A stretch of DNA of 64,000 nt from Francisella tularensis subsp. holarctica (GCA_945860585.1 CAMARA010000003.1:368-64367), one strand, 5' to 3'; shown: positions 16,450 to 64,000, counted from the first letter of the stretch. Numbers and translations are program-made. The notes: a model not told the origin generated them from the sequence alone.

Positions 16450-16473
16450 TCACCCTAGATAGACGTGCTTACG

Positions 16474-17142: not shown

Positions 17143-17194
17143 TTTGAATCTCCATTTGGTTTTTGTTGTGTATGGGTTAACAGCCCATAGAGCT

Positions 17195-22470: not shown

Positions 22471-22508
22471 GCGTTGAGGAACGTAAGCAAAATTAAGTTC
22501 CTATTCTG

Positions 22509-22604: not shown

Positions 22605-22613
22605 CAAGGAGTC

Positions 22614-30362: not shown

Positions 30363-30424
30363 ATTTTTAAGAAGAATTCTAAGAGGCCCCTTGATTGGGG
30401 TTTTTTATTTTTTTGGGGGAAGGG

Positions 30425-30871: not shown

Positions 30872-30882
30872 AGGGGGGTGAA

Positions 30883-32358: not shown

Positions 32359-32380
32359 AGCGTAAAACTGGAGAATAAAA

Positions 32381-34852
32381 ATGGCTGATATTACTGTAAG
32401 CCAGTTGGCAAAAAGAGTGGGTTTGAGCGTAGAGGGCTTGTTGGCCAAGTTTCTTGAAGCCAAGCTGCCGCCTAAAACTGCAAATGATGTGGTGACCGAT
32501 GCTGAGCGCGAGAAGCTCCTCTCTTCGATGCAAAACCAGCAGCAGGCGCCTAAAAAAATCACTCTGACTTTGAAGAAAAAGCCTGAATTTGATCCGCGTG
32601 GACAGGTGCAGGTGGAAGTGCGTAAAAAACGTAGTTTTGTGATGCCGAGTTCGGAAATGATTCAGCAGATGGAATCAGAAGAGGCGAAGCGTCGTGAGCA
32701 GGAGCGTCTCCGTCATGAAGCAGAGCTGCAACGTCTTGAAGAAAAAAAACAAGCGGAGCTGATCAAAACAAAAGTGACGATTCAAAAAGAAAGCCCAGTG
32801 CCTGATGCTGAGCCTGCGGTGCCAGAATCAAGTGTGGTGCTGCCCCCACTCGATGCTGAGCTCAATCCAGTCGCGAAAGAGAAGCCCAAACATCACGATC
32901 ATCATTCCACAACTGAAAAAGTGGAAGTGGAAGATACAAAGCCTAAAAAGCCTAAGCTTAAAGGCGATGAAGAGCGGGGCACGCGCCATTTTAGCGTGGA
33001 TACGATTGATGCAGCAGATGAGGAGGAGTCACGTCCTGCATTTGTGATTAAGCGTCGTCGCAAGCCGCATGAGAAGCAACGCTCCTTCAAAACGACAGAA
33101 TTTATTGTACGTACCGTCGAAGTGCCTGAATCCATTACCGTGTCAGATCTAGCACAAAAAATGGCTGTCAAAGGCGTGGAAGTCATTAAATCACTCATGA
33201 AAATGGGCGTCATGGCGACGATTAATCAGGTGATTGATCAAGATACCGCAGTGCTGATTGCAGAAGAATTAGGCCATAAGGCGGTTGCGTTGAATGAAAA
33301 CGCGATTGAAGAAAATCTCATTGCGCATGTTGCAGAAGGAGATTTAAGCGCGCGTGCACCGGTCGTCACGATCATGGGGCATGTCGATCATGGTAAAACA
33401 TCGCTGCTCGATTATATTCGCCGTACCAAAGTGGCTGCAGGAGAGGCGGGCGGAATTACCCAACATATCGGCGCCTATCATGTGGAAACGCCCAAAGGGA
33501 TGATTACTTTTTTAGATACCCCAGGCCATGCCGCTTTTACAGCGATGCGGGCGCGCGGTGCACATTGTACAGATATCGTTATTTTGGTGATTGCTGCGGA
33601 TGATGGTGTCATGCCTCAAACCATTGAAGCAATTCAACATGCCAAAGCAGCGAAAGCACCTTTGATTGTGGCGATGACCAAAATCGATAAGCCCGGCGTG
33701 GATACAGAAAAACTCAAGCAGGCTTTAACGACCTATGAAATTGTCCCGGAAGAGTGGGGTGGTGAAAATTTATTTGTAGGTGTTTCCTCTAAAACGGGTG
33801 CAGGGGTAGATGATCTGCTGGATGCGATTTTGCTTCAGGCTGAAGTGTTGGAATTAAAAGCAGTGCGGAATTCTCCTGCGCGCGGAGTGGTTTTGGAATC
33901 GCGTTTAGATAAAGGCCGTGGTGTGGTGGCGAGTATTCTGGTGCAGAATGGCACCCTTAAAAAAGGGGATATTGTCTTGTCCGGCACCGAGTTCGGACGC
34001 GTCCGTGCTTTGTTTGATGAATTAGGTCATCCCGTCACAGAAGCAGGTCCGTCTATCCCCGTTGAAGTGTTGGGCCTCTCTGGATTGCCCAATGCCGGCG
34101 ATGCCGTGATGGTGCTGGAAGATGAGAAAAAGGCGCGTGAAGTAGCCTTGTTCCGCCAAGGGAAATACCGTGCCGTGCGGCTTAATCGTGAAGCTACGAA
34201 TTTGGAAAATCTGTTTGATCGGATTAAAGAAGGGGAAGTGAAATCGGTAAATCTGGTCTTGAAAACCGATGTGCAGGGTTCATTGGAAGCGCTAGTCGAG
34301 TCTCTCAATAAACTGTCCACCAGTGAAGTCAAAGTCAGTGTGATTGCGAGTGGAATCGGTGGGATTACAGAGTCAGACATCAATCTGGCCATGGCCTCCG
34401 GTGCGGTGGTACTGGGCTTTAATGTGCGTGCAGATGCTGCCGCCAAACAATTGGCTGAGCGTGAAAAAGTGGATCTGCGCTATTACAGCATTATTTATAA
34501 TTTATTGGATGAGATTAAGCATGCGATGTCCGGCATGTTATCTCCTGAAATTAGAGAAAGTATTATTGGCATTGCCGCCGTGCGTGAAGTCTTTAAATCG
34601 TCTAAGTTCGGAACGATTTCAGGCTGTATGGTGACGGAAGGCCTGATTAAACGTTCTAGCCCGATTCGTGTTTTGCGTGATAATGTCGTCATTTTTGAAG
34701 GTGCATTAGAATCGCTGCGACGCTTTAAAGATGATGCAGCAGAAGTGCGTCAAGGCATGGAGTGTGGTATTGGAGTCAAAAACTATCAAGATGTGCGTGT
34801 CGGCGACCAGATTGAAGTATATGAGCGCACTACGATTCAAAGAACTTTATAG
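32381..34852 (+). CDS. infB: Translation initiation factor IF-2
   Basis: 823 aa with [17 protein letters not shown] and TKIDK GTPase motifs and a charged N-terminal region. Confidence 0.95.
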
Positions 34853-35259: not shown

Positions 35260-36192
35260 ATGCGCAACAAACACGATTATTATTTCAAATCCTTGATGAC
35301 AAAGCAGGCCTTTTTTGAGTCATTTATCAAAACATATCTGCCTAAAGAATGGCTGGACCGTTTGGATTGGTCATCGATTCAGTTATATAAAATGAGTGGT
35401 AAGCATCGTTCTGAGAAACTGCACAAAGAGTTTGAGGCAGATGTGATTTATTTGGCGCGTTTTGCTGATCAGGAGTGTCTGATCTGGTTTCATTGCGAAC
35501 ACCAAACGACTCCGGATCGACTGATGACGCTGCGCACGGTGAATTATCAATCTGCCGAGCTACTGGGCTATGCAGAACAAAACCCACAAAAACCGTTGCC
35601 GACAATTATTACCCTGATTTATCATCAAGGCAAGCGGCCCTGGCCTTATAGTATGCGCTTGGAGGATTTGTTTGCTGAGCCACATCTGGCGATGAAATAT
35701 TTTGGTCAGCCTATTTTGATTGATCTGCCCCTGATTCCAGATGAACAATTGCGTCAGCACAACGGCATCGGCCCGGTTGAGATGGTTCTCAAGTACGTAC
35801 GTCGTAAAGAATTTAAAACAAACATGCGAATCTTGTTGACTGAACTTCAGTCAGTGGATGACACTTTGCGTTCAATTGTGATAGAATATCTCATCGAAGC
35901 GGTAGATGTTCCAGATCTGGTAGCAGTAGCCACAGAGTGTTTACCTAACGACAAGGAGGTCATTATGACAGTTGCAGAACAATTAATTAGACGTGGTGTT
36001 CGGCAAGGAATGCAGCAAGGCATGCAGCAAGGAATGCAGCAAGGCATACAGCAAGGCATGCAGCGGGGGATGCAAGATGGAATTTATCTGGTTGCAAAGA
36101 ATTTGCTAGAAAATGGTTCAGAAGTTTCCTTCGTAGCGAAGTGTACGGGCTTATCTACAGAGATTGTTACACGTCTTCGTGGCGCTCAGTAA
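35260..36192 (+). CDS. Rpn-family recombination-promoting nuclease / YhgA-like putative transposase (PD-(D/E)xK), intact copy
   Basis: 310 aa. HDYYFKSLMTKQAFFESFIKTYLP...EFEADVIYLARF...IWFHCEHQTTPD is the Rpn/Transposase_31 signature. The C-terminus has AEQLIRRG, a QGMQ repeat region and AKNLLENGSEVSFVAKCTGLS. Confidence 0.85.
   Translation: MRNKHDYYFKSLMTKQAFFESFIKTYLPKEWLDRLDWSSIQLYKMSGKHRSEKLHKEFEADVIYLARFADQECLIWFHCEHQTTPDRLMTLRTVNYQSAELLGYAEQNPQKPLPTIITLIYHQGKRPWPYSMRLEDLFAEPHLAMKYFGQPILIDLPLIPDEQLRQHNGIGPVEMVLKYVRRKEFKTNMRILLTELQSVDDTLRSIVIEYLIEAVDVPDLVAVATECLPNDKEVIMTVAEQLIRRGVRQGMQQGMQQGMQQGIQQGMQRGMQDGIYLVAKNLLENGSEVSFVAKCTGLSTEIVTRLRGAQ
36004..36075 (+). repeat. 12-bp tandem repeat (6 units) encoding (Q-G-M-Q)n inside the Rpn gene
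   Basis: caaggaatgcag / caaggcatgcag / caaggaatgcag / caaggcatacag / caaggcatgcag / cgggggatgcaa. The stand-alone module has about 4 units and the downstream pseudogene copy about 1. Confidence 0.85.
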
Positions 36193-39636: not shown

Positions 39637-40518
39637 GTGAAAAACAAACACGATCATTATTTTAAAGCCCTGATGACAAAACGGGCCTTTTTTGAGTCTT
39701 TCATCAAGGCGTATCTGCCTAAAGAGTGGCTGGATCTTTTGGATTGGTCATCGATTCAGTTATATAAAATGAGCGGCAGGCATCGTTCTGAAAAACTGCG
39801 CAAAGAGTTTGAAGCAGATGTAATTTATCTTGCGCGTTTTGGAGATCAGGAATGTTTAATCTGGTTTCATTGCGAACACCAAACGACTCCAGATCGACTG
39901 ATGACGCTGCGCACGGTGAATTATCAATCTGCGGAGTTGTTAGGCTATGCAGAACAAAATCCACAAAAGCCGTTGCCGACAATTATTACCCTGATTTATC
40001 AACAAGGCAATCGGCCCTGGCCCCATAGTATGCACTTGCAGGATTTGTTTGCGGAGCCACAGCTGGCCATGAAATATTTTGGCCAGCCTATTTTGATTGA
40101 TCTGCCCCTGATTCCAGATGAGCAATTGCGTCAGCATAACGGGATTGGCCCGGTTGAGATGGTGCTCAAGTATGTGCGTCGTAAAGAGTTTAAGACAAAA
40201 ATGCGAATCTTGTTGACCGAGCTTCAGTCAGTGGATGACATTTTGCGCCCAATTGTGATAGAATAACTCATCGAAGCGGTAGATGTTCCAGATCTGGTAG
40301 CAGCAGCCACAGAGTGTTTACCTAATGACAAGGAGGTCATTATGACAGTCGCAGAACAATTAATCAGGCGCGGTGTTCAGCAAGGTGCGCAGAATACATT
40401 GTATCTAGTTGCAAAAAATTTGCTAGAAAATGGTTTGGAGGTTCCCTTCGTAGCGAAGTGTACGGGCTTATCTGCCGAGATTGTTGTGAGCCTGCGGAAT
40501 CAAAAAAATTCTAAATAA
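39637..40518 (+). pseudogene. Rpn-family nuclease gene, second copy, interrupted by an in-frame TAA (or split into two genes)
   Basis: By eye it is about 90% identical at the DNA level to 35260-36192. Codon 210 is TAA (40264-40266) where copy 1 has TAT. The frame stays open afterwards to TAA 40516-40518, and the QGMQ repeat region is collapsed. Confidence 0.75.
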
Positions 40519-51246: not shown

Positions 51247-51257
51247 TCGTCAAGGAG

Positions 51258-51287
51258 TGTCATCCTCGCGAAAGCGGGGGTCCAGTC
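51258..51287. repeat. Solo arm of the palindromic MITE-like family
   Basis: tgtcatcctcgcgaaagcgggggtccagtc matches the 30-bp arm of the elements at 22509 and 62098. There is no partner arm. It lies between the convergent Dabb and cspA genes. Confidence 0.6.
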
Positions 51288-51322
51288 CAATCCCCCCTTT
51301 CATTATCTAGCGCGCCAAAAAA

Positions 51323-51620: not shown

Positions 51621-52991
51621 TTAGGCTCCGGGGGTAAGTGTGGGGGCTGAAGTAGATTGTCCATTTTTTAGTACATCGTAAAAGGGGGCAGCCACTTGCT
51701 GGTGGGGCTTGGCCTGCCTACCGTTGATCGAGGGATCTCCTAAAAGACTTTGTTTGCTTTGAGTGGTAGGAGTTCTTACTGTGGACGTATCATGCACTGT
51801 AGTATTTAAAGAGGGCTCAGGAGCAGGTGCATCCATCTTCTTGGGTGAGCTAAACAGTCGCGCTGCAAATTTTGAGATGGTATTTCCAATTGCGTTCAAA
51901 GCGCTGCCAATTAATTTATACCACGGCTGTTTGTTTGGTTGATTCACTGCTGTAGCATTATTATTTGTTTGAAGGCCGCGTGTGTTCAGCGTCGACATTG
52001 CATCAACTCGATTCCTTGCCGCTTGCTGCGTTATTCTAAGTGCGGCGTCACGATGGTGTGGTGCTTTTTGGGCCGAGCTAGGTGGCGTCTGAGGTGCTGT
52101 TGCCATATTACTATGTGAAGATCCCGCGGTTCGAGTAGGGCTGCCGGTGTCTGTAGAGGGTTGCTCCGATGCTTGGTGGTGAGAACCTGTAGCAGATCTG
52201 TGCCCATCTACATAAGGGTTAGATAGGATCAGATTTAGAGGGGAATGAGCACCGGTGACGGGAGCCGCGCCATCTGTTGACATCGTTACTCCGCTAGACC
52301 AGCTGCCACTCCGGGCTCGATGCATTTGCACCGGTTCGGTATCGTATGTCGGAGCATTTTTATCGAGATTCATAATCTCGTTTGCACTCTTAAGAAGATT
52401 TGCCCATAAAGGAGGAGCTGAGCGTACGTCAAGCGTCTCTTTTTCAGATGTCGTGGTAAGTGACTTTATTGATTCTCCAGCCCCAAGCTTGCTTTTGTAA
52501 TCAAAGAACAGCTTTCGCCTGTTGCCGTGTAAGCGACTATCAAGTGAGGCCATTACTTTGATTAGTGCATCTATCTTCATCTGGTGATCCCAAATTTCTT
52601 CTTGTCTTACAATCTGTATAATTTGCTGCAGAATAGACTGTTTTGCTTCTTGCAGTTCTGCTTCAGTTGGATCAGCAGTCGATCCAGAAGCTGCTCCACT
52701 TGAAGTGACGGCCAGTGTGGGCTTTATTGTTGTAGTTGTAGTAGCAGCTTTTTTTAATTTCACTAGGGTGTTATAATATCCATTCTCTTTGCGGCGTTTT
52801 TCCGTCGGAAGTCTTGGTATGTCTTTATCGCTTGGAAATGGATCAGATAAAAGTTTTGCAGTCGTCAAGCTGTTCGAGTGTTTTCTGGTATCTACGATAG
52901 GTTGCGTCAGCTCACCATCATCATGTTTTTCCTTCAGATATGCTGCTTCTCTCTCTTGGTATGCCATAATCATTCCCCTTATAATCGTCAA
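51621..52991 (-). CDS. Ser/Thr/Pro-rich hypothetical protein, effector-like
   Basis: 456-aa ORF with low-complexity S/T/P/A/Q-rich stretches, no signal peptide and no TM segment. I recognise no family. Confidence 0.5.
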   Translation of the reverse strand: MTIIRGMIMAYQEREAAYLKEKHDDGELTQPIVDTRKHSNSLTTAKLLSDPFPSDKDIPRLPTEKRRKENGYYNTLVKLKKAATTTTTIKPTLAVTSSGAASGSTADPTEAELQEAKQSILQQIIQIVRQEEIWDHQMKIDALIKVMASLDSRLHGNRRKLFFDYKSKLGAGESIKSLTTTSEKETLDVRSAPPLWANLLKSANEIMNLDKNAPTYDTEPVQMHRARSGSWSSGVTMSTDGAAPVTGAHSPLNLILSNPYVDGHRSATGSHHQASEQPSTDTGSPTRTAGSSHSNMATAPQTPPSSAQKAPHHRDAALRITQQAARNRVDAMSTLNTRGLQTNNNATAVNQPNKQPWYKLIGSALNAIGNTISKFAARLFSSPKKMDAPAPEPSLNTTVHDTSTVRTPTTQSKQSLLGDPSINGRQAKPHQQVAAPFYDVLKNGQSTSAPTLTPGA

Positions 52992-53194
52992 AATGATGAA
53001 CTTGTTTTGCTCTATTGAAACATGCGCTTTAAAACAAATACACTCATTTTTTAACTGACAATTTTTGCATGAGAATTCTGAAATGTTATTTTTAGTTGTT
53101 GGTTTTCAGAATTCATAATTGAATTATAGATGAATAAAAAAAATATGTCAACATCTAGGTTTTTGTCTAGTGTTTATTTGTAATTTTGGTGGGC

Positions 53195-53866
53195 TTAGGG
53201 GGCGGGGTTGAAGTCTGCGCTGGCGAAGAGTTTGGGGTTGGTGGGGGGGGTGTGGTTGAGGATTTTTCTGTCGCGGTGGTGTTGGTAAAGAAGGCAGAGG
53301 GCGGCAGCGCAAAGTAGGGGGCCGGCGATGAGCAGTCCAATGCCGGCATGGGCGACGCTGGGGACGATTCCTTTGTCTGAAGTATAGATGGATGAGCCGA
53401 TGAGGATTGAGGCTAAGCCTGCTAAGGCGGTGATGGGGGTAAGATATGTTAGGATATTCTCTCGTAATCTTGCTTGCCTGCAGCGGGTGGCCACGTTGTC
53501 GATGCTTGTTTTGAAAAAGGGAAGAGGCTCTATGCGGTTTTGGCACTTTTGCAGTAAGTCGATCGTGGTTTTTTCCGTGCCGAGATTGATGAGAACGTGG
53601 CGAGCGGTGGGGAGGAGCGCTAGAATTTGTTTCTTGATTGTATTCCGAATTTCTTTGTTGGTGAGACGCAGCTTGAGCAGGTCATCAAATTCAAAGAATT
53701 CTGCGATCTTGCAAAGCATTACTGTAGGAAAAAAACCTACTCCCGCTAATCTGGGTGGGATGATAATGGCGATGTCACCTGCTGAACTCCCCGCTGTGCC
53801 TCTTTCCGAAAGAAGCGGTATGGTGAAGGGGGAGTTTGGTCCGTCTATACGTATGGCTTTGTACAC
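53195..53866 (-). CDS. F-box-like domain membrane protein (eukaryotic-like, effector candidate)
   Basis: Residues about 46-84 (nt 53615-53731), FPTVMLCKIAEFFEFDDLLKLRLTNKEIRNTIKKQILAL, fit the F-box consensus LP.E.L..I..fL...DLl.lrlV.K.w...v. Two C-terminal TM segments follow (ITALAGLASILIGSSIY, IGLLIAGPLLCAAALCLLY). Confidence 0.62.
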   Translation of the reverse strand: MYKAIRIDGPNSPFTIPLLSERGTAGSSAGDIAIIIPPRLAGVGFFPTVMLCKIAEFFEFDDLLKLRLTNKEIRNTIKKQILALLPTARHVLINLGTEKTTIDLLQKCQNRIEPLPFFKTSIDNVATRCRQARLRENILTYLTPITALAGLASILIGSSIYTSDKGIVPSVAHAGIGLLIAGPLLCAAALCLLYQHHRDRKILNHTPPTNPKLFASADFNPAP

Positions 53867-54613
53867 TTATGAACGCAGTGATGGTGTGGCTTCAGCTTCA
53901 AGACTTTGCTTTTGAAGGGTCAAGAAGGGATGGCTTAAAGCAAGCAGCAGTTGCAGTTTCATTGCGATCATGCTGGAGCGCTCATTAAGGGCAGTATTAA
54001 AAACAGACTGATAAATATTTTTTGGCAATAAGGCTTGTTGTTGGGTAAACAAATCATACTGACGCTGTGCCTGAGTACGCACGCTAGTATGCTCGTGCTG
54101 CAATGTCACGATTGCTTTTGTGAGAATCGCTTTTTCCTCGGCCTGTTCGGGATGGGATGTTTCACCGATGTTTAAGTATTGTTTGTGCAATGCTTTGCCT
54201 GTTTCTACAAGGGAATCTAAGTTATTGATATGCGTTGCGACGTCATCTAACAATGCCATCATGGTTGCTAGAATATGTTTTTCTTCGACGGTCATTGCAT
54301 CTTGTTGTTGGAAATTTTTTGCTACATCGGGAGAACCTTTGCTTTCGTCTTCGGGGAGCGTAAATGTTTGCGGGGCTTGATCCTGTTTGGCAGAAATGGC
54401 CTGCTGTGCTCTTTCCCAGGAGATGAGGCGCTCCTGGTAGGTGTTAAATAGATTATCCAGCTCTGTTTGTATCGCCGTGTTGATTTTAACTTGTGCAAGC
54501 TCGCTATACAGCACTTGAATTTCAGGATCATGGGGATGGCTGCGAAGCGCTTGTTTAATTGCGTTTTTTAAAGCGTCAAGTCTTGCATTTATTTCTTCGA
54601 AATGAACTGGCAT
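53867..54613 (-). CDS. Coiled-coil hypothetical protein, abutting the F-box gene
   Basis: 248 aa, helical and Gln/Glu/Leu-rich. Its stop codon lies directly against the ATG of the F-box gene. I recognise no family. Confidence 0.5.
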   Translation of the reverse strand: MPVHFEEINARLDALKNAIKQALRSHPHDPEIQVLYSELAQVKINTAIQTELDNLFNTYQERLISWERAQQAISAKQDQAPQTFTLPEDESKGSPDVAKNFQQQDAMTVEEKHILATMMALLDDVATHINNLDSLVETGKALHKQYLNIGETSHPEQAEEKAILTKAIVTLQHEHTSVRTQAQRQYDLFTQQQALLPKNIYQSVFNTALNERSSMIAMKLQLLLALSHPFLTLQKQSLEAEATPSLRS

Positions 54614-54895
54614 AGCGAGGGCTCCTGGTTTTTGAAAATATAAAAATATTAATCATTATAGCCAATCTATTATTTCGCTGTCAAGTTGAGGTTTTTTTAA
54701 AATATTTTACATAAAAATTGATAAGTGTAAATAATGATATATATTAAGTATTTATTTTTTTATTAAGAATCTTTTTTATTCAATATCTTGCGCTGAGATT
54801 TGCAATCAAGCGTGGGATTGTCTTGCTTTTTTGCAAACAGTTGGTATTATATGCTCATATTAATTAAACAGTTTATTAAAAGATAGGGTGAGGCG

Positions 54896-55534
54896 ATGCT
54901 GGAATTGTTGATGGTAGCGGGGGTGGGGCCTGATCATCCTACTGAGAAGCGTAAAATCTTTGATGATGCGGGTGGGGTGATTGGGCGGGATCAGCGCGCG
55001 GATTGGGTCTTGTATGATCCTAGCCGGCAGATTTCCAGCCAGCATGCGCGGATTATTTTTGCGCAGGGGCGCTATTTTTTGCTGGATATCAGTGTCAATG
55101 GTATTTTGACGGCGGCAGGAGAAGCGCTGCGTAAAGGCGAGCAGCGGCCCCTGCAATTGGGCGAGGTGTATGTGATTGGGCCATATCAGTTTGAAGTGAT
55201 GCGCATCAGTCAGGGGCAGGCGCTGGAGTCCTTTAAAATGGCGGGGCTGGAGCATCTTCTGGCTGAGCCGGCGACGGAATCCGCAACTTTGACGCCGCTG
55301 GTGTATGCAGAAAAATCGCAGCAGATCGCCCCGTTTTTGCCTGAAACGAATACGCTGAAAGCCTTTGATTTTATGCCGGAGCCGCTGGATTTTTATCCGA
55401 CAGCGGGCGTTAAAAAAGGCTTGCTGGATTTGTTTCGGGAACGCTTTCAACTGCCGGTAGAAGCTTTTGCTGGCCTGTCCGAGGCGCAGTTTCAGCAGCA
55501 GATTTTAGAAGTATGGTTGGACAGTATCAAATAA
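54896..55534 (+). CDS. fha: FHA-domain protein of the T6SS (Fha/TagH N-terminal type, short)
   Basis: FDDAGGVIGRDQRADWVLYDPSRQISSQHARIIFAQGRYFLLDISVNGILT is a classic FHA core. It sits directly upstream of tssJ, as in the P. aeruginosa H1-T6SS. Confidence 0.8.
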   Translation: MLELLMVAGVGPDHPTEKRKIFDDAGGVIGRDQRADWVLYDPSRQISSQHARIIFAQGRYFLLDISVNGILTAAGEALRKGEQRPLQLGEVYVIGPYQFEVMRISQGQALESFKMAGLEHLLAEPATESATLTPLVYAEKSQQIAPFLPETNTLKAFDFMPEPLDFYPTAGVKKGLLDLFRERFQLPVEAFAGLSEAQFQQQILEVWLDSIK

Positions 55535-55541
55535 GAGGAGC

Positions 55542-56009
55542 ATGCGTATGTTTAAAAAAAGTATAGCCCTGGCAGCGGCCCTGGCTTTGGGTGGTTGTGC
55601 CAGTGTGGATACGGAGATGTCAGCATCGAGTGATATCAATCCCGATATGAATGGAAATCCTTCCCCCATCGCAGTGAGTGTGTTTGAACTATCAAGCCCC
55701 AGTGCGTTTATGGCGGCTGATTTTATCCATTTGTATACCGAAGCGCCGGTGACACTGGGAGCGAGTTTGTTGCTGGAGCGCAATCTCATGCTGGTGCCGG
55801 GTACAAGCGAGAAACTGAGTTTACCCGTGGTGAAAGGCGTGACGGCGGTGGGCTATGTGGCGGCGTATCAAGATGTGACGGCCACGCAATGGCGGCAGCT
55901 TGTGCCCGTGGCGCCGAGTATGATGCAAGGCGTGACTGTGACTGTCAGCCTCGATAATCAGGGCATCCATATTGCCAACAATCCCACATCGGCTGGGGGC
56001 AGTTTATGA
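55542..56009 (+). CDS. tssJ: T6SS outer-membrane lipoprotein TssJ
   Basis: Lipobox ALALGGC, then INPDMNGNPSPIAVSVFELSSPSAFMAADFIHLY, the TssJ/VasD signature. 155 aa. Confidence 0.85.
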   Translation: MRMFKKSIALAAALALGGCASVDTEMSASSDINPDMNGNPSPIAVSVFELSSPSAFMAADFIHLYTEAPVTLGASLLLERNLMLVPGTSEKLSLPVVKGVTAVGYVAAYQDVTATQWRQLVPVAPSMMQGVTVTVSLDNQGIHIANNPTSAGGSL

Positions 56010-57331
56010 AAAGAGTGTTGTGGAAAGAAGGCCTGTTTATGCGCCCGCAACATTTGCAGAAACAGGATTTTTATTGGATGGAGCGCACACGTGAACTCTA
56101 TCAGCAGCAGGGGCCGTATGCGTATGGAATCAGTCATTTTAAATATTTAGAGGCGGCTCTGCAGCGCGGGGAGATCCGCATTCAAAGTTTGGAAGGCGTG
56201 ATGCCGGATGGAACGGTGTTTAATCTGACGGGGCGGGAGGCGCAATTGGCCTGCGCGCTGCCGGAGCAGATTGATCATGCCTGGCTGATTTTGACGCTGC
56301 CGCTTGAGACGGTTAAAGGCGTGCGCGTGGCAGCAAGTTATAGCGCGGCGCGGGAAGAGCGTTATTTTATCAGCCGGGAACAAGTCTCGGATGAGCTGAT
56401 CGGCGAGCAGGAAATGTTGGAGTTGGAAATTCTGGAGCCCAATTTTAAACTGCGCGTGGTGCAGGATCTCAGCGAGGCAGTGGGAGAGCACGCATTGCCT
56501 TTGCTGAAGCTGATTGAACGGCGTGAAAATGGTGTTCTGATCGTGGACGAACAGTTTGTGCCGCCTTTGCTCAATCTGCGTGCGCATGCGGAGCTCAATC
56601 AAATCATCAAGGAAATTGCGACGCTCCTGAATGTGCGGCGCCAGAAGCTGCTGGAGCGGATTGGTGGGGGTGATCAATATGGTGTGGCAGGGATCAACGA
56701 ACTCCTGCTGCTGCAGCTGATCAATCGCTACGAGCCCCTCTTACAGCATTATGAAAAACAGAGCCTGCTGCATCCCGAAACCGTCTATATTTTATTTTTA
56801 AAATTGGCGGGCGAGCTGCGGACGTTTACGAGTGAGGATCGGGGTTATGCAAACGCGCCGGCCTATCAGCATCAGGATTTGGGCGCTTGTTTTGCCGTCT
56901 TGATGGCGGATTTGCGCGAGGCGTTTAATTATGTCTTTGATGAGCCTGCGATTTTAATCCCCATCAAAGCGCATCAGTATAATTTGTATCTGGCGGAATT
57001 CGGCAAGATGTATTTTGATTATCAACGCCTGGTGCTGGAAGTCACAGCAAAAATGCCCCTGGAGCAGCTGCGCCATTTGTTCCCGACCCATGTCAAATTA
57101 GGCCCGACTGAGATGATCCGCGATCTGGTGAATCTGCAGATCCCCGGTATTCCGGTGACAGCGTTGCCCGTGGCCCCACGGCAGATTCCCTATCACAGCG
57201 GTACGGTTTATTTTGAGCTCGATAATCAGGGCGAGCTGTGGGAAAAACTACGCAATTCGCCCGGTCTGGCCCTGCATTTGGGCGGTACTTTCCCCGGTGT
57301 GGAACTGCGTTTGTGGGCGATTAAAAGATGA
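56006..57331 (+). CDS. tssK: T6SS baseplate/membrane-complex connector TssK
   Basis: MKRVLWKEGLFMRPQHLQKQDFY is the hallmark TssK N-terminus. 441 aa. Confidence 0.92.
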   Translation: MKRVLWKEGLFMRPQHLQKQDFYWMERTRELYQQQGPYAYGISHFKYLEAALQRGEIRIQSLEGVMPDGTVFNLTGREAQLACALPEQIDHAWLILTLPLETVKGVRVAASYSAAREERYFISREQVSDELIGEQEMLELEILEPNFKLRVVQDLSEAVGEHALPLLKLIERRENGVLIVDEQFVPPLLNLRAHAELNQIIKEIATLLNVRRQKLLERIGGGDQYGVAGINELLLLQLINRYEPLLQHYEKQSLLHPETVYILFLKLAGELRTFTSEDRGYANAPAYQHQDLGACFAVLMADLREAFNYVFDEPAILIPIKAHQYNLYLAEFGKMYFDYQRLVLEVTAKMPLEQLRHLFPTHVKLGPTEMIRDLVNLQIPGIPVTALPVAPRQIPYHSGTVYFELDNQGELWEKLRNSPGLALHLGGTFPGVELRLWAIKR

Positions 57332-57384
57332 ATAAATTGTTAAAAGATAGAATGTTGAATAAATTGTTAAAAGATAGAATGTTG
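57331..57384. repeat. Perfect 27-bp tandem duplication immediately after the tssK stop
   Basis: aataaattgttaaaagatagaatgttg occurs at 57331-57357 and again at 57358-57384. A partial related copy (ttaaaagatgaat) overlaps the last tssK codons. Confidence 0.9.
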
Positions 57385-57397
57385 AATTTGCCCGCCG

Positions 57398-57446
57398 TGT
57401 CATCCTCGCGCACGCGGGGATGACACAGGGCGTGGCGAGGATGACT
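57398..57446. repeat. Truncated/rearranged copy of the palindromic MITE-like family in the tssK-tssL spacer
   Basis: tgtcatcctcgcgcacgcggggatgaca (a self-complementary arm remnant) followed by cagggcgtggcgaggatgac. It shares gtcatcctcgcg / gcgaggatgac with the element at 62098. Confidence 0.65.
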
Positions 57447-57490
57447 CAATCATGCTTTTTTGAAAGCAAACATTTAAGGAGAGCGAAAAA

Positions 57491-58288
57491 ATGAATGGAT
57501 CATTGGAAGCAGATGATAAAACTGTTTTTATGCCGAATATTTCCCAAGGGCAGGCGCCGGCGGTGGCGGCAGTGCGGAATGTCAGTCCGAGTTTGCAGGC
57601 TTTGCAAGTCGATTACCGTTCCGGCCTGAATCCCTTGATGGAGCATGCAACAGAGCTCTTTCTGCTGCATTATCAAATTGTGAAGGGCCATTTTCGGGAG
57701 GCGGAATCGCTGCGGGCCATGGTGCAGGATGCCTTGCTGAAATTCGAATTACGCGCACAACAGGGTGGGGTGCAAAAGACGGTCATTAAGAGTGCGAAGT
57801 ATGTTCTCTGTACCTTCATGGATGAAGCGGTGATGCAGCAGTTTGGTCATGAATCTTCCTGGGGGCAGCGGACCTTGCTGGCGCAGTTTTTTAACGAAAC
57901 TTGGGGTGGCGCGACGGTGTTTAAAATTCGCCAGTTTTGTGTTGAGAATATCCATGAATATGCAGATTTATTAGAGATGATTTATGTCTGTCTATGTCTC
58001 GGTTTTAAAGGGCAATACGGCACTTTGGCGCAGGGAGAGACACAGCTGGAAAGTCTGAAGCGTGAGAGTTATCAGGCGATCATGGGGGTGAGGGGTAGTG
58101 ACCTCAATGCGCCATTATCTCCGCATGGGCCCTCGCGCTATCAGGGCAAAACGACTTTGAAAAAAGCGACCTCCTGGCGTTGGCTGGTGGCCGTCTGCCT
58201 GGGATTTATGCTGATTTCTTATCTGAGTTTGACGGTCTTCGTCAATATAGAAAGCGGGCCGGTATATGACAAAGTAATGGCGGCATGA
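57491..58288 (+). CDS. tssL: T6SS inner-membrane protein TssL (DotU family)
   Basis: NPLMEHATELFLL, AKYVLCTFMDEAVM, WGQRTLLAQFFNETWGG, LLEMIYVCLCLGFKGQY, and a single C-terminal TM segment. It has no peptidoglycan-binding extension. Confidence 0.9.
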   Translation: MNGSLEADDKTVFMPNISQGQAPAVAAVRNVSPSLQALQVDYRSGLNPLMEHATELFLLHYQIVKGHFREAESLRAMVQDALLKFELRAQQGGVQKTVIKSAKYVLCTFMDEAVMQQFGHESSWGQRTLLAQFFNETWGGATVFKIRQFCVENIHEYADLLEMIYVCLCLGFKGQYGTLAQGETQLESLKRESYQAIMGVRGSDLNAPLSPHGPSRYQGKTTLKKATSWRWLVAVCLGFMLISYLSLTVFVNIESGPVYDKVMAA

Positions 58289-58304
58289 GGCGAGTGAGGG
58301 CAAG

Positions 58305-61300
58305 ATGAGCATGATTAAAGCAAGCAAAGCAGTATTTAAGAACAAGATCTGGTGGGGATTATTTTTCTGCCTGTTGCTGTGTGCATTTATTTGGTGGGTG
58401 GGCCCGGCGATTTCGATTTATTCCAGTAGCCCCTTGCAATCCGTGGCGCTGCGTCTGCTTCTGATTGCAAGCATGCTGCTGCTCTTGGTATTGATGCGTT
58501 ATCGTGTGGCTTGCAGTCACGCTGTGGCCAGCTTTTTTAATGTGCATGCTAAATTGGAGTGGCCCCGTTTTCATCCCGGGTATCGTCTGGAAAAACGGCA
58601 GATGCGTCGCGATTTTAAAAAGCTAAAGGCTCAGCGTTCCTACGATTTGCCTTGGTATCTGGTGATGGGAGAGCAGGGCGCGGGTAAAACCAGTCTGCTG
58701 CGCGAGGCGGAGCTGAATCTGAGTTATCAGTCCTATAATCACATCCGGCATCATACCAAAAGCTTCCAGTGGGTGTTGGCGGAGGAGGGCTTGTTTATGG
58801 ATGTGCCGGCCGCTTTGTGTTGGCAGCGCGAGGAGGCACAGCGATTTTCCTGGCTGATGTTTTTGAAATATTTGAAAAAAGCCCGCAGCCGTCGTCCGAT
58901 CAATGGCCTGATCTTAACCATTAATCTGCGGGATTGGTTGGATCAGAAGCTGGATGATTGGCTGGAGTCCATGCGCCTGCGTTTGCATGAGTTGCAGGAT
59001 AAAGTCGGCCTGTCGATTCCGGTGTATCTGGTGTTTACGCATATCGATGTGCTGCCGGGATTTGCGGAATTTGTGTTGCGTTTTAGTGAAGAAGAGCGTC
59101 ACAGTATTTTAGGCCTGACCTTTGCGGAGTCTTCTCCCGCGCTGGCGCAATTGCCGTTGGCTTATGATGCCTTGATCCGTGCCTTAAACCAACGCATGCG
59201 CCGTGATTTGGATCAAAGTGCGAGTTATTATTTCCCCATGCAGATGGCAGCGCTGCGGGAGAAATTGCTGGGTCTGGGGCAGTTTTTGTTTCATCCGCGC
59301 AAAAATTTTATGCCGACCCGTTGGCGCGGGCTGTATTTTGTCAGCAATGGCGGGCTGGGCGCTGAGCAATATGATGTGATTTTGGGGGAGGCTTGTTTAA
59401 GCAATCTCGCGTGGCCGCGTGCTTTGCGGAATCGGCGGTTTTTTAGTGAGGAGATGTTCAAGCAGGCAATTTTGCCGGAAGCAGAACTGGTGGGCGTGCA
59501 GGCGGGTTCAGAGTGGCGTTTTAGTCTGTGGCAGGCCCTGAAGTTGGGCGGGTTGCTGCTCGCCACGCTGGGCGCAGTGGGAGTCTGGACGGGTAATATG
59601 GTCCAGCATCTGAATCAAAATAATCGCCTGGAAGCCGTCACCTCTGCGACCGATCTGTCGACCCTGGCGCAATGGTATCACGCGGGTTTAAACATCTGGC
59701 CAACGGGATTGTATGTCTATCAGAATCCGCAGACAGCGCTTGCATCTTTATATCAGCAGCAATTACAGAAGCAATTTTTGCCGCAACTCATCACGACCTT
59801 GCAAACAGGACTGGCTGCTGCCACCGCCACGGCGAATAATAACAATATGAATTCGATTGAAAATGTCTACAATTGGCTGTCCTGTACCTTGATGTTGAAT
59901 CAGCTGAATCAGCTCAATCCCGGGCAGATGCAGGCGTTGCTGGATAATAAGGCCAGTCTGCAGTTTTCACAAAATCTGGCGGATCTGCTGCAGCTTGGTT
60001 TTTCACCTGTCACAACGCTGGATCAAAATATCATTCAAAAAGCGCGCGCCGCGATGTGGAATAGTCCTTTGTACATGCAGGCCTATCTGCGCTTGAAGCT
60101 GGAGGCCGCCTCCCAAAACCAGCAAAACTTTCAATTGGCCGGCGCGATGAGTGCAGATAGTGCTGAAGTATTCAGTAATTTAAATGCCGTGTCCGTCCCT
60201 TATTTATTTAGCAAAGCAGGCTATGCGCAGTTTTATGCCGCACAGGCCAATCAGAGCTTGACGACGGTGGCGGATCAGTCCTGGGTGTTGGGGGATCAAT
60301 ATCATGCGCAAAACCCACCGCCCGATTTAGCTGCGGCGCGCGCACAGATGGATAATTTATATTGGACGGATTATATGAATGCCTGGGACAGTGCCCTCGC
60401 GCAGTTGAATATGGCGCAGTTCACCAGTCTGCAGCAGGAAATTGATTTGCTCACCACTTTGACAGAAAAAGATTCGCCCTTGATCAGCGTGGTCATGGTC
60501 GTGACGGATAATAGTAGCGCTGGCTTGATCAATAATAATTTGGTGGCGACGCATTATCTGCCGCTGACAGCCTTGCTCACGCAGAGTCAAGGCGCGGGGA
60601 TGCAAGGGGTGCTGGCCAGTTTGACGGCCTTGCAGCAGTATTTAAATAGCCTGGCCAATTCGAGTAATCCGCAGTTGTCAGCGTATACCGCGGCGACGCA
60701 GATTTTTGCCGGGCAGGCGGATCATTCCCTGACGGCGATTACCAGCGAAGCGCAGACCCTGCCGATGCCGCTCTCACGTTGGCTGAATCAGATTGTCGCC
60801 AATACCTATGCGATTATTTTTGCCACGGCCAATCAATATCTGGCGGATCAGTGGCAGGCGGGAGTGGTCTCTTATTATCAGCAAACTTTGGATGGGCGCT
60901 TTCCTTTTGCGGATTCTGAGAATGAAGTAACGCTGCAGGATTTTAGCAATTATTTTAAACCCGGCGGTGTGGAAGATAGTTTTGTCAAAAAATACCTGAG
61001 CCCCTTTTTGACCTATGATAGTTTTGGTCAGGCGCAGTGGGCGAGTGTGGATAATCTGCCCTTTAGTGCCGATGCCGCTATCCCGCGGGAAATCACGGCA
61101 GCGACGGTGATCCGCAATACTTTTTTTGGCGGCAATAATGGGGCGCTTAATTTTACGATTACGCCCGCGGCCATTGATAATGCGCATCGTGCGGTGCTGA
61201 ATTATGATGGCAAAGCAGTCGTGTTTGATGGCGATAGCGATCCTGGCATCAATATGGTCTGGCCGCCGCAAAATACCGATGGTTCGATCAACATCAGCTT

Positions 61301-61526
61301 TGATCGCCTGTTGATGCCGGATGAGGTCAAGAATTTTATGGGGCCCTGGGCGTTGTTCCATTTGCTGCAGGCCTCAACTTTAGTGCGTTCCAAATATAGC
61401 AGTCAGTATCAGGTGGAGATATCGCAAGATGGCATGGCGATTCATTTTAGTTTAAGTGCCAATAGTGTGAACAATCCCTTTGATTTGCGCCTGCTGCGTG
61501 ATTATACCCTACCCCGTAACTTTTAG
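58305..61526 (+). CDS. tssM: T6SS inner-membrane protein TssM (IcmF family) with an intact Walker A
   Basis: 1073 aa with an N-terminal TM hairpin and PWYLVMGEQGAGKTSLL (Walker A at 58668-58694). INGLILTINL, a third TM segment, and a long periplasmic ImcF-related and IcmF C-terminal region follow. Confidence 0.93.
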   Translation: MSMIKASKAVFKNKIWWGLFFCLLLCAFIWWVGPAISIYSSSPLQSVALRLLLIASMLLLLVLMRYRVACSHAVASFFNVHAKLEWPRFHPGYRLEKRQMRRDFKKLKAQRSYDLPWYLVMGEQGAGKTSLLREAELNLSYQSYNHIRHHTKSFQWVLAEEGLFMDVPAALCWQREEAQRFSWLMFLKYLKKARSRRPINGLILTINLRDWLDQKLDDWLESMRLRLHELQDKVGLSIPVYLVFTHIDVLPGFAEFVLRFSEEERHSILGLTFAESSPALAQLPLAYDALIRALNQRMRRDLDQSASYYFPMQMAALREKLLGLGQFLFHPRKNFMPTRWRGLYFVSNGGLGAEQYDVILGEACLSNLAWPRALRNRRFFSEEMFKQAILPEAELVGVQAGSEWRFSLWQALKLGGLLLATLGAVGVWTGNMVQHLNQNNRLEAVTSATDLSTLAQWYHAGLNIWPTGLYVYQNPQTALASLYQQQLQKQFLPQLITTLQTGLAAATATANNNNMNSIENVYNWLSCTLMLNQLNQLNPGQMQALLDNKASLQFSQNLADLLQLGFSPVTTLDQNIIQKARAAMWNSPLYMQAYLRLKLEAASQNQQNFQLAGAMSADSAEVFSNLNAVSVPYLFSKAGYAQFYAAQANQSLTTVADQSWVLGDQYHAQNPPPDLAAARAQMDNLYWTDYMNAWDSALAQLNMAQFTSLQQEIDLLTTLTEKDSPLISVVMVVTDNSSAGLINNNLVATHYLPLTALLTQSQGAGMQGVLASLTALQQYLNSLANSSNPQLSAYTAATQIFAGQADHSLTAITSEAQTLPMPLSRWLNQIVANTYAIIFATANQYLADQWQAGVVSYYQQTLDGRFPFADSENEVTLQDFSNYFKPGGVEDSFVKKYLSPFLTYDSFGQAQWASVDNLPFSADAAIPREITAATVIRNTFFGGNNGALNFTITPAAIDNAHRAVLNYDGKAVVFDGDSDPGINMVWPPQNTDGSINISFDRLLMPDEVKNFMGPWALFHLLQASTLVRSKYSSQYQVEISQDGMAIHFSLSANSVNNPFDLRLLRDYTLPRNF

Positions 61527-61535
61527 GAGAACCTT

Positions 61536-63629
61536 TTGAAAATCATTGTGATGAAAGATCGAAAGCAGCATCAGCATGCCCTGCCGGAATGGGAGGCCCA
61601 ATTTGCCCAATTAAAACGAAGCCTGCGTTGGGATCAGCGTCCCTGGTATTGGGTTTTAGGTGAGAGCCTGTTTGCAACAGAAGGACATGTTTCAGTGCAG
61701 GATCATGGCGTATTTATCGCGCCCGAAGCCGCAATTTGGCAGGATCAGCCGACTGCGCTGCGAGAATCCAAATGGCAGAGTTTTCAGCGGCAATGGCGAT
61801 GTGCGCAACCCTGGCATGCGCCGGAGGCGGTGATCGTGGGATATTCAATCGCATTGCTACAAGATCCAGAGCGCCTGGCTGCGTTTAATCAGGCGCTGGA
61901 GCAGGCTCTGCGTGAAGGGCGCCGGCATTGGAAGCCTCGGCCGATCTATGTGATGATCTCCGGGGTAGAGTCGGTCTCTGGTTTTGATGCTTATTTTAAG
62001 GCGCTCAAATCTGAGCAGAAGCAGCAGATTTTGGGTTTTACTTTTCCCTCTAAACAGGCTGATTTATACTGTGCACGGTCACAAATTGAGGTTTCTGTGT
62101 CATCCTCGCGAACGCGGGGATCCAGTCTAATCCAACAAGACCAAGGCTTTGAAGATATTGGACTGGATCCCCGCGTTCGCGAGGATGACACGTTACTTCA
62201 AAAGTCCCAATCTTTGGCCGCGTTCAGTATAGAAGCCGAATGTACAAGTCTGCAGCAGCGTTTGAGCACCAAAGTCCTCGCGCATTTAAGCTGGGAGGCC
62301 GCGCAAGCGCATGAAAATGCAGACATCTTGTTTTTCCCGCAAGCCTTGGCAAAAATCTATCCGCCTCTGATCACCGCAGTTAAGCCTTTGCCTTTAGTGC
62401 GGGGCGTGTATTTTGCCAGCGCCGATTCCCTCAAGCAGATTGAGACCGAGGTACTGGCAAAAGAGGCGCAGGCCTTCAAGCCCTGGAGCGCGCTGTGTGA
62501 GTATGTCGAAACGCAGCATAAAAAAATCGCCGTCGCGGTGTTGGTGGGCATGCTACTGCTATGGAGTATCGGCTGTTTCAGTCTGTTAAAAAAAGAGGCA
62601 ATGGAGCGGCAAGACAGTGCATCCTTGCCAGTCGTATCTGCGCCTGCGGTGGTCCGGCAAACCCAAACCGGCCTGAATGTCCCCGCGTTTGCGAGTATCG
62701 CTGCTGCGTCTTCCTGGCTCAGCGCGGCGAGTCAGCAGTCTTTTGCTGATCCTGCCACGCAGACGGCGATTCAGTCCGCTTTGCAGGCAGCGAGTGCCGC
62801 CTTGGCGCAGGTGCATGGCAGTGAGGCTGCGCTCAATTTATCCATTCAAATTTTAAAGGGTCAATGTGCGCCCTTGAATCAATTGGAGGCTTTGAGTGCA
62901 GCGGCTCCCCAGCCTGTGCAAGAGATCTTGAAGAAGATCGTCCAGGCAGTCACGCGCACTGTTTTTGCGGAAACGGAAAGGGGGATGGTGCAAAATTGGC
63001 AGGCGCAGCTGGCTGGATCTTGTCTCCAGGTGATTCAGAATCCCAATCCAGACCTCACCGACTTCAGTCATTTTTTCAGTCCGAGTGGGACGGGCGGCCG
63101 TTTTCTGGGTGAGCGCGTGGCGTCCCTCGTGAATATCCAAAGCGGTCAATTGCAGGAGCGTTCTGCCTATGGCGTGCCTTTTGTCCTGCCGGAATTTTTG
63201 CAGCAGGATATTGTGCGCCTCTTGTTGATTCACGATGCATTTTTTCATCATAGCAATACGCCGAGTTTGAGCATCAGTTTAACGCCGATGGTCTTGAGTA
63301 AAAACCTCGCCGACTTTAGCATTCAATATGGCGCGCAAAGTTTGTTTTATCAAAATGGCCCGCGCTTTGCCACGCTCTGGAATTGGCCTGCTGCTGCCGG
63401 TGATGTGGTCGTGAAATTTGTGGATTTGAACGGTCAGGTGCAGACCGACACCTACTCTGGCACCTGGGGTCTGATTCAACTCTTCAATTCCGCCAGTGTC
63501 AGCACGATTGATTCAAGCCATTTTGCCCTGACCTTCACCAAAGGAGACGCCTCTGCCACCTATGAATTGTCGCTCACCCAAGGTAATTTTGCCGGCGTGT
63601 TAGCCTTGCAAGGTTTTAATTGCCAGTAG
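61536..63629 (+). CDS. Truncated TssM/IcmF paralog with a degenerate P-loop, sitting in the position tagF usually occupies
   Basis: 697 aa. TTG 61536 lies 6 nt after AGGAG. The N-terminus aligns by eye to the TssM NTPase domain (PWYWVLGESLFATEG vs PWYLVMGEQGAGKTS; RPIYVMISGVESVSGFDAYF...ILGFTF vs IPVYLVFTHIDVLPGFAEFV...ILGLTF). There is one TM segment (IAVAVLVGMLLLWSIGCFSLL). The C-terminus aligns to the TssM C-terminus (DLTDFSHFFSPSG vs TLQDFSNYFKPGG; SGTWGLIQLFNSA vs MGPWALFHLLQAS). Confidence 0.7.
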   Translation: MKIIVMKDRKQHQHALPEWEAQFAQLKRSLRWDQRPWYWVLGESLFATEGHVSVQDHGVFIAPEAAIWQDQPTALRESKWQSFQRQWRCAQPWHAPEAVIVGYSIALLQDPERLAAFNQALEQALREGRRHWKPRPIYVMISGVESVSGFDAYFKALKSEQKQQILGFTFPSKQADLYCARSQIEVSVSSSRTRGSSLIQQDQGFEDIGLDPRVREDDTLLQKSQSLAAFSIEAECTSLQQRLSTKVLAHLSWEAAQAHENADILFFPQALAKIYPPLITAVKPLPLVRGVYFASADSLKQIETEVLAKEAQAFKPWSALCEYVETQHKKIAVAVLVGMLLLWSIGCFSLLKKEAMERQDSASLPVVSAPAVVRQTQTGLNVPAFASIAAASSWLSAASQQSFADPATQTAIQSALQAASAALAQVHGSEAALNLSIQILKGQCAPLNQLEALSAAAPQPVQEILKKIVQAVTRTVFAETERGMVQNWQAQLAGSCLQVIQNPNPDLTDFSHFFSPSGTGGRFLGERVASLVNIQSGQLQERSAYGVPFVLPEFLQQDIVRLLLIHDAFFHHSNTPSLSISLTPMVLSKNLADFSIQYGAQSLFYQNGPRFATLWNWPAAAGDVVVKFVDLNGQVQTDTYSGTWGLIQLFNSASVSTIDSSHFALTFTKGDASATYELSLTQGNFAGVLALQGFNCQ
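62098..62190. mobile_element. Palindromic MITE-like element (93 bp, perfect 30-bp inverted repeats) inserted in frame in the TssM-paralog CDS
   Basis: tgtcatcctcgcgaacgcggggatccagtc (62098-62127) and gactggatccccgcgttcgcgaggatgaca (62161-62190) are exact reverse complements. 93 bp is 31 codons. It translates as SSSRTRGSSLIQQDQGFEDIGLDPRVREDDT within the 697-aa ORF. Confidence 0.85.
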
Positions 63630-63685
63630 TGCTTTAAATAAATTTGTGTCATAATGGCAGGAGTTGTCAAAAAATGTGGATGTGC

Positions 63686-63931
63686 ATGATGGAAAAAGTT
63701 GTCAAAATGGGAAGTAATGGCAGAATATTGTTGCCAGCGACGTATCGTAAGGCGTTGCATTTGCAGGAAGGATCCCGTGTTTTCTTAAAGCTTGAGAATG
63801 GTCGCTTAGTGCTTTCGTCTATTGAGTTGGCAGCAAAAAAAGCCCAAGACTTAGTGAAGAAGCACTGTGCCGGGCATAGTTTAGTTGCCGACCTAAAAGC
63901 GATGCGGGATGAGGAGAATCAGCATGAGTAA
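63686..63931 (+). CDS. vapB: AbrB/SpoVT/MazE-fold antitoxin (VapB-like)
   Basis: MEKVVKMGSNGRILLPATYRKALHLQEGSRVFLKLENGRLVL is a swapped-hairpin AbrB-type DNA-binding domain. Its stop overlaps the downstream PIN gene. The start is ATG 63686 or 63689. Confidence 0.8.
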   Translation: MMEKVVKMGSNGRILLPATYRKALHLQEGSRVFLKLENGRLVLSSIELAAKKAQDLVKKHCAGHSLVADLKAMRDEENQHE

Positions 63932-64000
63932 AGTGGTTCTGGATGCATCTGCATTGCTGGCATTTTTAAACGAAGAGCCAGGGGCTGACATAGTGCGGCC
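63924..64000 (+). CDS. vapC: PIN-domain VapC toxin, N-terminal fragment (runs off the window)
   Basis: ATG 63924 gives MSKVVLDASALLAFLNEEPGADIVR, the typical VapC N-terminus with the first acidic residue (D7). Confidence 0.7.
   Translation, partial: MSKVVLDASALLAFLNEEPGADIVR

Follow-up and report, generated by a model that had tools for sequence, protein, structure and literature searches.

A type VI membrane-complex operon standing apart from tail genes, with a reduced second TssM, in an uncultured gammaproteobacterial lineage

What are the genes for the envelope part of a type VI secretion system (T6SS) doing in a stretch of DNA with no gene for a sheath, tube or spike beside them? The stretch (CAMARA010000003.1:368-64367), 64,000 nt and here called the window, carries at 54896-63629 six tightly packed plus-strand open reading frames (ORFs) for an FHA-domain protein, TssJ, TssK, TssL, TssM and a paralogue of TssM, here TssM′. 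The answer we consider probable is that this operon, for the membrane complex and its baseplate connector, stands detached from the rest of a split T6SS-i. If so, the system is an ordinary T6SS with its membrane-complex operon apart from its tail genes, and it cautions that detectors which look for gene clusters would call such systems 'partial'.

The six genes and their products

54896-55534, plus strand: fha (TagH-like), 212 aa, an FHA domain only (PF00498, E 2e-9)
55542-56009, plus strand: tssJ, 155 aa, outer-membrane lipoprotein (TIGR03352, 113 bits against a cutoff of 32)
56006-57331, plus strand: tssK, 441 aa, baseplate/membrane-complex connector (TIGR03353, 380 bits against a cutoff of 100)
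57491-58288, plus strand: tssL (DotU family), 265 aa (TIGR03349, 157 bits against a cutoff of 90)
58305-61526, plus strand: tssM, 1073 aa (TIGR03348, 583 bits against a cutoff of 388)
61536-63629, plus strand: tssM′, 697 aa, a partial IcmF-related_N and an IcmF_C domain

All four membrane-complex and connector genes, tssJ, tssK, tssL and tssM, pass curated T6SS models, and by function and membership the block is a T6SS-i membrane complex plus TssK and an Fha-type scaffold. The FHA protein itself reaches 85 bits on the TagH model TIGR03354, under the 120-bit cutoff, and has no match to the T6SS_FHA_C domain (PF20232) which is carried by its counterparts in four of the related loci listed below (L011, L014, L021 and L025); its phosphothreonine-binding residues, GR...SxxH, are invariant across the clade, to which L025 does not belong. 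The TssJ lipobox, LGGC with Cys19, is kept in seven of seven clade members. TssK aligns end to end over residues 3-440 with solved TssK structures, 5Y0E being among the closer homologues. TssL is C-tail anchored, with a hydrophobic C-terminal segment visible in the sequence, has V. cholerae TssL (4V3I, VCA0115) as its best match in the PDB, and shows no OmpA/peptidoglycan-binding domain; its N-terminal DDKTV[F/I], here DDKTVF, is invariant in the clade and is present too in an outgroup that bears PpkA and PppA. TssM consists of an N-terminal transmembrane (TM) hairpin, with two TM segments detected, an NTPase domain, a periplasmic domain and IcmF_C, and its Walker A motif, GEQGAGKT at residues 122-129, is intact; that motif is invariant in the clade save for the first TssM copy of L014, which is without it in its strict form.

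What is missing? Among all window ORFs of at least 120 aa, scanned with Pfam, there is no tssA, tssB, tssC, tssE, tssF, tssG, hcp, vgrG, clpV or PAAR gene, and no Ser/Thr kinase, PP2C phosphatase or TagF_N domain. Three ORFs at 30395-34852, considered by their size as tssB, tssC and clpV, are rimP, nusA and infB. The sixth gene of the block was also considered as tagF, but it has no TagF_N (PF09867) and matches only IcmF-related_N and IcmF_C. A first-pass annotation, made from the sequence alone, had named all six genes, and the profile scores and gene calls agree with it, as they do with its short FHA protein, its TssL lacking a peptidoglycan-binding extension, its TssM-like sixth gene and its window free of tail, kinase and phosphatase genes.

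The gene order fha1-tssJ1-tssK1-tssL1-tssM1-tagF1 is that of the P. aeruginosa H1-T6SS, and the first five genes stand here in the same order in one block resembling a transcription unit, as they do in L025, the nearest locus outside the clade. However, the sixth gene is here a TssM paralogue and not tagF, no PppA, PpkA or TagQRST is near the block, the FHA protein is without its C-terminal domain, and no divergent tssA-tssBC-hcp operon adjoins it. As TagF, PppA, PpkA and the Fha C-terminal domain do not accompany it, this is not an H1-type phosphorylation module. A second comparison is with the TssJLM complex of Sci-1 from enteroaggregative Escherichia coli (EAEC; 6HS7, 6IXH), whose TssM is matched by TssM at the sequence level, and whose TssM C-terminal domain is matched by the C-terminal regions of both TssM and TssM′. 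The differences are that two distinct TssM-type proteins are involved here, that identity is only 15-18%, and that TssK and TssL are closer to 5Y0E and to V. cholerae VCA0115.

TssL and TssM are homologous to DotU and IcmF (IcmH/IcmF) of the Dot/Icm type IVB secretion system, and the first-pass annotation had raised a stand-alone DotU/IcmF platform with that link in mind. The scores speak otherwise, as TssM passes the T6SS model with its 583 bits and gives 201 bits on the type IVB IcmF model (IcmF_IVB, NF038226), where the cutoff is 1000; TssM′ gives 43 bits on the latter. TssJ and TssK, for which we know of no Dot/Icm counterpart, are present, and no dot/icm gene is in the window.

The block in relatives and the whereabouts of its partners

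Where, then, might the other T6SS genes be? As the source contig, of 64,844 bp, stops at most 844 bp after the window, the missing downstream genes say nothing on the organism's own genome, and the vapBC cassette that had been placed 'at the window edge' is at the contig end. Three short contigs of the same organism (L001-L003, 2.2-3.5 kb, run ERR3719143), retrieved through exact TssK, TssL and MazE matches, reach about 358 bp beyond the window; for TssM and TssM′, with the start codons as chosen here, there was no exact-sequence match. A scan of genome contigs with the TssM alignment yielded four loci from named metagenome-assembled genomes (MAGs), the scan with TssM′ alone as query yielded no match, and a metagenome scan yielded one clade member (L024) together with 79 generic TssM loci. 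The named clade-member genomes are GCA_964202445.1, CANJQG01, CANJVU01 and CAYGFJ01. TssK relatives are graded from 86% down to about 44% identity, after which come generic T6SS TssK proteins at 36-40%. The loci, read with flanks of about 10 kb, are given below with TssK identity to the window; J to M stand for TssJ to TssM, M′ for TssM′, and attached numbers for lengths in aa.

L004, TssK 85%, 172 kb: Na/H exchanger, HU, cupin, lpxB, GFO, FHA209-J-K-L-M1066-M′577-MazE-PIN, MATCAP, HPF, S41 protease (ctpA-like), iPGM
L008/L009/L017, TssK 86%, 184 kb ('Thiotrichales bacterium RH-23may17-488'): FHA220-J-K-L-M1075-M′827-MazE-IS66
L006/L007/L018, TssK not seen, 8 kb ('Pseudomonadota bacterium', GCA_964202445.1): M (cut)-M′904, rpsB-tsf-pyrH-frr
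L019, TssK about 65%, 20 kb ('uncultured Francisellaceae bacterium'): xseA, FHA215-J-K-L-M1049, an ORF6N gene, contig end
L011, TssK 60%, 216 kb: cdsA, only FHA396-J-K, rng-yhdP
L023, TssK 61%, 133 kb: as L011, with the three genes fragmented
L021, TssK 56%, 88 kb: heptosyltransferase, FHA404-J-K-L-M1157-M′983, COQ7, trmB
L014/L020, TssK 46%, 114-151 kb ('Thiotrichales bacterium RH-23may17-780'): hfq-hflXKC-purA, FHA464-J-K-L-M1178-M2(1105)-DUF2169/pentapeptide, OLD-family nuclease
L024, TssK not seen, 5.9 kb: M (cut)-M′963
L025, nearest non-clade locus, metagenomic: FHA648-J-K-L-M-TagF-PppA, H1-like, PpkA nearby

The six-gene block is a conserved self-contained unit, found in differing housekeeping contexts in at least five lineages, and within the flanks read no clade locus has a tail gene beside it. 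Is such detachment a peculiarity of the clade? The 10 larger ORFs scanned in the flanks of L025 gave no T6SS match, and because that locus shows the same detachment, a detached membrane operon is normal for the branch. In L014/L020 the gene that follows the block is for a DUF2169 protein, of a VgrG-effector adaptor family, which suggests a spike elsewhere in that genome. As to earlier positions, the remnant of FHA, TssJ and TssK at L011 8368-11326 and L023 8172-11131 follows rpsB-tsf-pyrH-frr-uppS-cdsA, and at L006 5041-8193 TssM and TssM′ are directly upstream of the same rpsB-tsf-pyrH-frr cluster. There is a hint here of an ancestral block position near that cluster and of later break-up of the module.

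How strongly is the block held? When the window is set against L004 and L009, synonymous change proves to be saturated, with a proportion of synonymous differences (pS) of 0.63-0.72. The corresponding non-synonymous proportion (pN) is 0.09 for TssK, 0.11-0.15 for TssL, 0.17-0.19 for TssM, 0.16-0.23 for FHA and TssJ, and 0.26-0.27 for TssM′. The ratio omega is about 0.04 for TssK, 0.05-0.08 for TssL, 0.09-0.13 for TssM and 0.10-0.17 for TssM′, values that are rough with dS saturated; all that we rely on is that pN lies far under pS. Purifying selection acts on every one of the six genes, and most strongly on TssK.

In the split system that we favour, the operon would supply the envelope-spanning TssJ/TssL/TssM complex, TssK for docking the baseplate and the FHA scaffold, and the sheath, tube, spike, other baseplate genes and any kinase would be elsewhere in the genome, on other contigs. 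The FHA domain may bind a phosphothreonine in the N-terminal DDKTV motif of TssL, by analogy with Agrobacterium tumefaciens where Fha binds pT14 of TssL, the phosphopeptide, to which the DDKTV motif bears a resemblance, being DLPpTVVEI (PMC3953482). Such binding would require a Ser/Thr kinase encoded elsewhere, and that the phosphothreonine reader is intact where no kinase is near hints that its partners, too, have their genes elsewhere. The features shared with the Agrobacterium pathway of PpkA, TssL-pT14, Fha and TssM are the conserved FHA pocket, the invariant Thr-Val motif near the TssL N-terminus and the intact TssM Walker A; the differences from it (PMC3953482) are that the window has no kinase, phosphatase or TagF and that TssL is here without a peptidoglycan-binding domain. 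There is also precedent for dispersal, as the T6SS of a Legionellales symbiont is reported to be scattered over three loci (bioRxiv 10.64898/2026.04.11.717937). That organism, 'Ca. Centrionella anaeramoebae' (bioRxiv 10.64898/2026.04.11.717937), is a host-associated gammaproteobacterium, but it is of another lineage, its T6SS reportedly has no TssL, and a second TssM is not among its described genes. Of the two alternatives that the first-pass annotation had offered, part of a split T6SS is the better fit.

Several observations pull the other way. The clade, over the flanks read, has shown no tail, tube, spike or TssEFG gene. Conservation of TssK is poorest in its N-terminal shoulder, which in solved complexes is the contact with TssFG, with 79, 51, 40 and 28% identity as distance grows. 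The outgroup follows this trend as well. Within a subclade there has been reductive change, the FHA protein being without its C-terminal domain and TssM′ having undergone large deletions and a repeat-element insertion, and L011 retains only FHA-J-K, genes that are fragmented in L023. Because of the states of L011 and L023, T6SS loss is under way somewhere in the clade.

Could the block in the window, too, be the remnant of a T6SS being lost, with the tail genes already gone and the rest heading to pseudogenisation? The shortened FHA, the shrinking TssM′ with its repeat element, and the states of L011, L023 and L022, in which tssM is split, are what it would lead one to look for. However, the window, L004, L008/L009 and L021 have all six ORFs intact, pN stays far under pS across saturated synonymous divergence, the catalytic and binding motifs are invariant, and the insertion in tssM′ keeps the reading frame, all of which makes decay of this copy unlikely.

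That the clade has no contractile tail, and that FHA-TssJKLM-TssM′ acts as an autonomous envelope platform, alone or co-opted by another machine, we regard as quite unlikely. It would accommodate the separation of the block from tail genes in every lineage sampled, the clade-specific extra TssM-like subunit, and the better conservation of a surface internal to the module, the TssK head domain, than of the TssFG-binding shoulder. Against it, TssK is the most constrained gene, and docking of the TssFG baseplate wedge is, to our knowledge, its only role; the DUF2169 adaptor gene follows the block in L014/L020; the outgroup L025 also has a detached membrane operon; and we know of no precedent for a tail-less T6SS membrane complex. 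Bolder, and very doubtful, is the version in which such a tail-less, autonomous or co-opted machine has TssM and TssM′ as a heteromeric channel, the two filling the non-equivalent TssM positions, inner and outer pillars, of the EAEC complex.

An ordinary contiguous cluster, with its other genes beyond the toxin-antitoxin pair and the contig end, is hardly credible: the contig does stop within 844 bp and IS66 after MazE in L008 means that the break could be repeat-caused, but L004 has the same MazE-PIN pair followed by about 9 kb of housekeeping genes, and not by the tail genes whose presence there the first-pass annotation had named as refuting it, housekeeping genes come directly after TssM′ in L021 and L006/L007, and the 54 kb of the window upstream of fha has no T6SS gene.

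A second, reduced TssM

What is the sixth gene product? In BLASTP, once its own family is set aside, it best matches the second TssM of L014, which is full-length (124 bits, 31% identity), and first-copy TssM proteins reach only about 60 bits with it. The first copy of L014 is the partner of the window TssM, at 575 bits. From this pairing TssM′ is the positional orthologue of an old tandem TssM duplicate, and alignment and a motif scan indicate that it descends from a full-length second TssM of 1105 aa by stepwise shrinkage, the stages of which are as follows.

L014, 1105 aa: TM segments 1-3 and the Walker A motif GEPGVGKT present
L021, L024, L006 and L008, 983, 963, 904 and 827 aa: TM segments 1-2 lost, Walker A degenerate
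Window, 697 aa: TM segments 1-2 lost, Walker A degenerate, periplasmic helical region deleted too
L004, 577 aa: smallest form

The losses that recur in the family are thus of the N-terminal TM hairpin, the ATPase motif and the periplasmic helical region. All members keep the cytoplasmic segment after the Walker motif, one TM helix (at about 333-351 in the window copy) and a strongly conserved C-terminal stretch of about 250 residues. A sequence search against the PDB gave no match for TssM′, and it was mapped by fold search instead. Its AlphaFold2 model has a mean predicted local distance difference test score (pLDDT) of 70.7, with 80-90 in the periplasmic part, and in Foldseek it matches the EAEC TssM C-terminal domain (4Y7L, 4Y7M, 4Y7O), the part of TssM that was crystallised with TssJ, at a TM-score of 0.71-0.75 and E of about 1e-11; TssM of the membrane core complex, 6IXH and 6HS7, is matched also.

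The protein would be inserted by its single TM helix, and its C-terminal domain may bring it into the TssM/TssJ assembly of the periplasm, where it would be an accessory subunit or a partner that is not an ATPase; its gene is in the genomic slot that TagF/PppA have in H1-type operons. It is a candidate new accessory subunit or regulator, and its natural losses would indicate which parts of TssM are enough for entry into the membrane complex. The family is rare: a word-indexed search of 5.8 billion proteins found three members, and among 1.84 billion representatives there are 13 clusters (50% identity, E at most 1e-30), beyond which come the scores of generic TssM. Tandem or truncated TssM paralogues in this arrangement are not described in the literature searched. 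At L014 12204-19044 the first TssM (1178 aa) is without a strict Walker A and the second (1105 aa) has GEPGVGKT, the reverse of the arrangement in the window, where the first copy keeps it; functions may have been shared out between the paralogues in different ways from lineage to lineage.

The copy in the window also carries a palindromic element resembling a miniature inverted-repeat transposable element (MITE), at 62097-62191 with no strand assigned, which is in frame within tssM′, is absent from all relatives, and coincides with a low-confidence stretch of the TssM′ model (residues 173-229). It is one of a MITE-like palindromic family of about 95-100 bp with 35-nt arms (GTGTCATCCTCGCGAACGCGGGGATCCAGTCTAAT), whose copies in the window are a full intergenic one at 22507-22606, the full one in tssM′, a half at 51257-51291 and a short related hairpin at 57399-57426. 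In-frame insertion of palindromes in coding genes recalls the Rickettsia palindromic elements.

Flanks, lineage and other features of the window

54614-54895, plus strand: AT-rich intergenic, probable promoter region, with sigma-70-like matches (to the consensus only) at 54706-54735 and 54718-54745
57332-57490, plus strand: tssK-tssL spacer, 160 bp and organism-specific, where relatives have 15-20 nt
63674-63931, plus strand: MazE/AbrB-fold (VapB-type) antitoxin, 85 aa (PF04014, 37 bits against 24.7)
63924-64000, plus strand: 5′ end of a PIN-domain (VapC-type) toxin (PF01850), cut by the window end

The 11-mer TTAAAAGATAG is at 54876-54886, 10 nt 5′ of the fha start codon, and is the core of a tandem 27-bp repeat, GAATAAATTGTTAAAAGATAGAATGTT, whose two copies at 57331-57384 lie in the spacer between tssK and tssL. 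The window holds three exact copies of the 11-mer in all, each within the module. It was considered as a conserved operator, but probably is not a conserved site because relatives' loci have no copy. The hairpin at 57399-57426, noted above as related to the palindromic family, is in the same spacer.

Judged by sequence the pair after tssM′ is a type II toxin-antitoxin of VapBC type. The full toxin, of 126 aa, can be read in L003, a contig of the same organism, and both there and in L004 its gene overlaps the 3′ end of the antitoxin gene. In each of the three closest lineages the pair is linked to the block on its 3′ side (window 63674-64000; L004 11820-12459; L008 9049-9297), with only the antitoxin and then IS66 in L008. 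This suggests that the pair travels with the block or stabilises it.

Directly 5′ of fha are three minus-strand ORFs at 51621-54613, none of which has a convincing Pfam family. Their products are a Ser/Thr/Pro-rich protein of 456 aa, one of 223 aa that has hydrophobic segments and a borderline match to F-box (21.4 bits), and one of 248 aa that resembles a coiled coil. Could these be divergent T6SS parts, or effectors of the module? They are not part of it, because no homologue adjoins the module in any relative locus fetched; among the fetched loci only this organism has them. They resemble eukaryote-targeting effectors, and nothing links them to T6SS.

To what lineage does the block belong? 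NusA relatives at 84-92% identity have no closer name than 'MAG: Gammaproteobacteria bacterium', the series runs down to about 60%, and cultured taxa (Pseudomonas, Ectothiorhodospira, Alkalilimnicola) are at 54-57%. The 'Legionellales-like' host of the first-pass annotation is not supported, as neither Legionella nor Coxiella is in the top 120 NusA matches and the MAGs bearing the module have Thiotrichales or Francisellaceae as their labels. Identities of NusA fall off in parallel with those of TssK, which fits vertical inheritance of the module in an uncultured gammaproteobacterial lineage. A canonical T6SS-i module is thereby placed in an uncultured lineage with Thiotrichales/Francisellaceae labels; cultured Francisella use a divergent system of the Francisella pathogenicity island (FPI) type. 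For T6SS in Fastidiosibacteraceae or Francisellaceae MAGs, the literature searched does not describe this arrangement.

The remaining genes of the window are housekeeping ones (der, bamB, coaX, glnA, rimP-nusA-infB-rbfA, lspA, tsaD, catalase, tatD, asmA, trpEG), mobile-element genes and ORFans. A minus-strand tyrosine integrase gene (1272-2507) adjoins tRNA-Asn (2622-2697), and 1272-2697 seems to be one margin of an integrated island or prophage running off the left end of the window. At 11860-17223, minus strand, two DUF4402 proteins, a 909-aa protein with a weak CarboxypepD_reg match and unannotated ORFs may form a chaperone-usher-like surface fibre locus. Two plus-strand YhgA-like (Transposase_31) genes (35260-36192 and 39637-40266) are paralogues, with 89% identity across 300 nt, and after them come short repeated ORF starts that have 12-nt tandem repeats of QQGMQ type (families D1-D3). 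Finally, the single plus-strand ORF at 20189-21388 combines a fatty-acid desaturase (residues 12-230) and an ISL3 transposase fragment (residues 286-393), probably because an insertion sequence remnant has cut a gene short or become fused to it.

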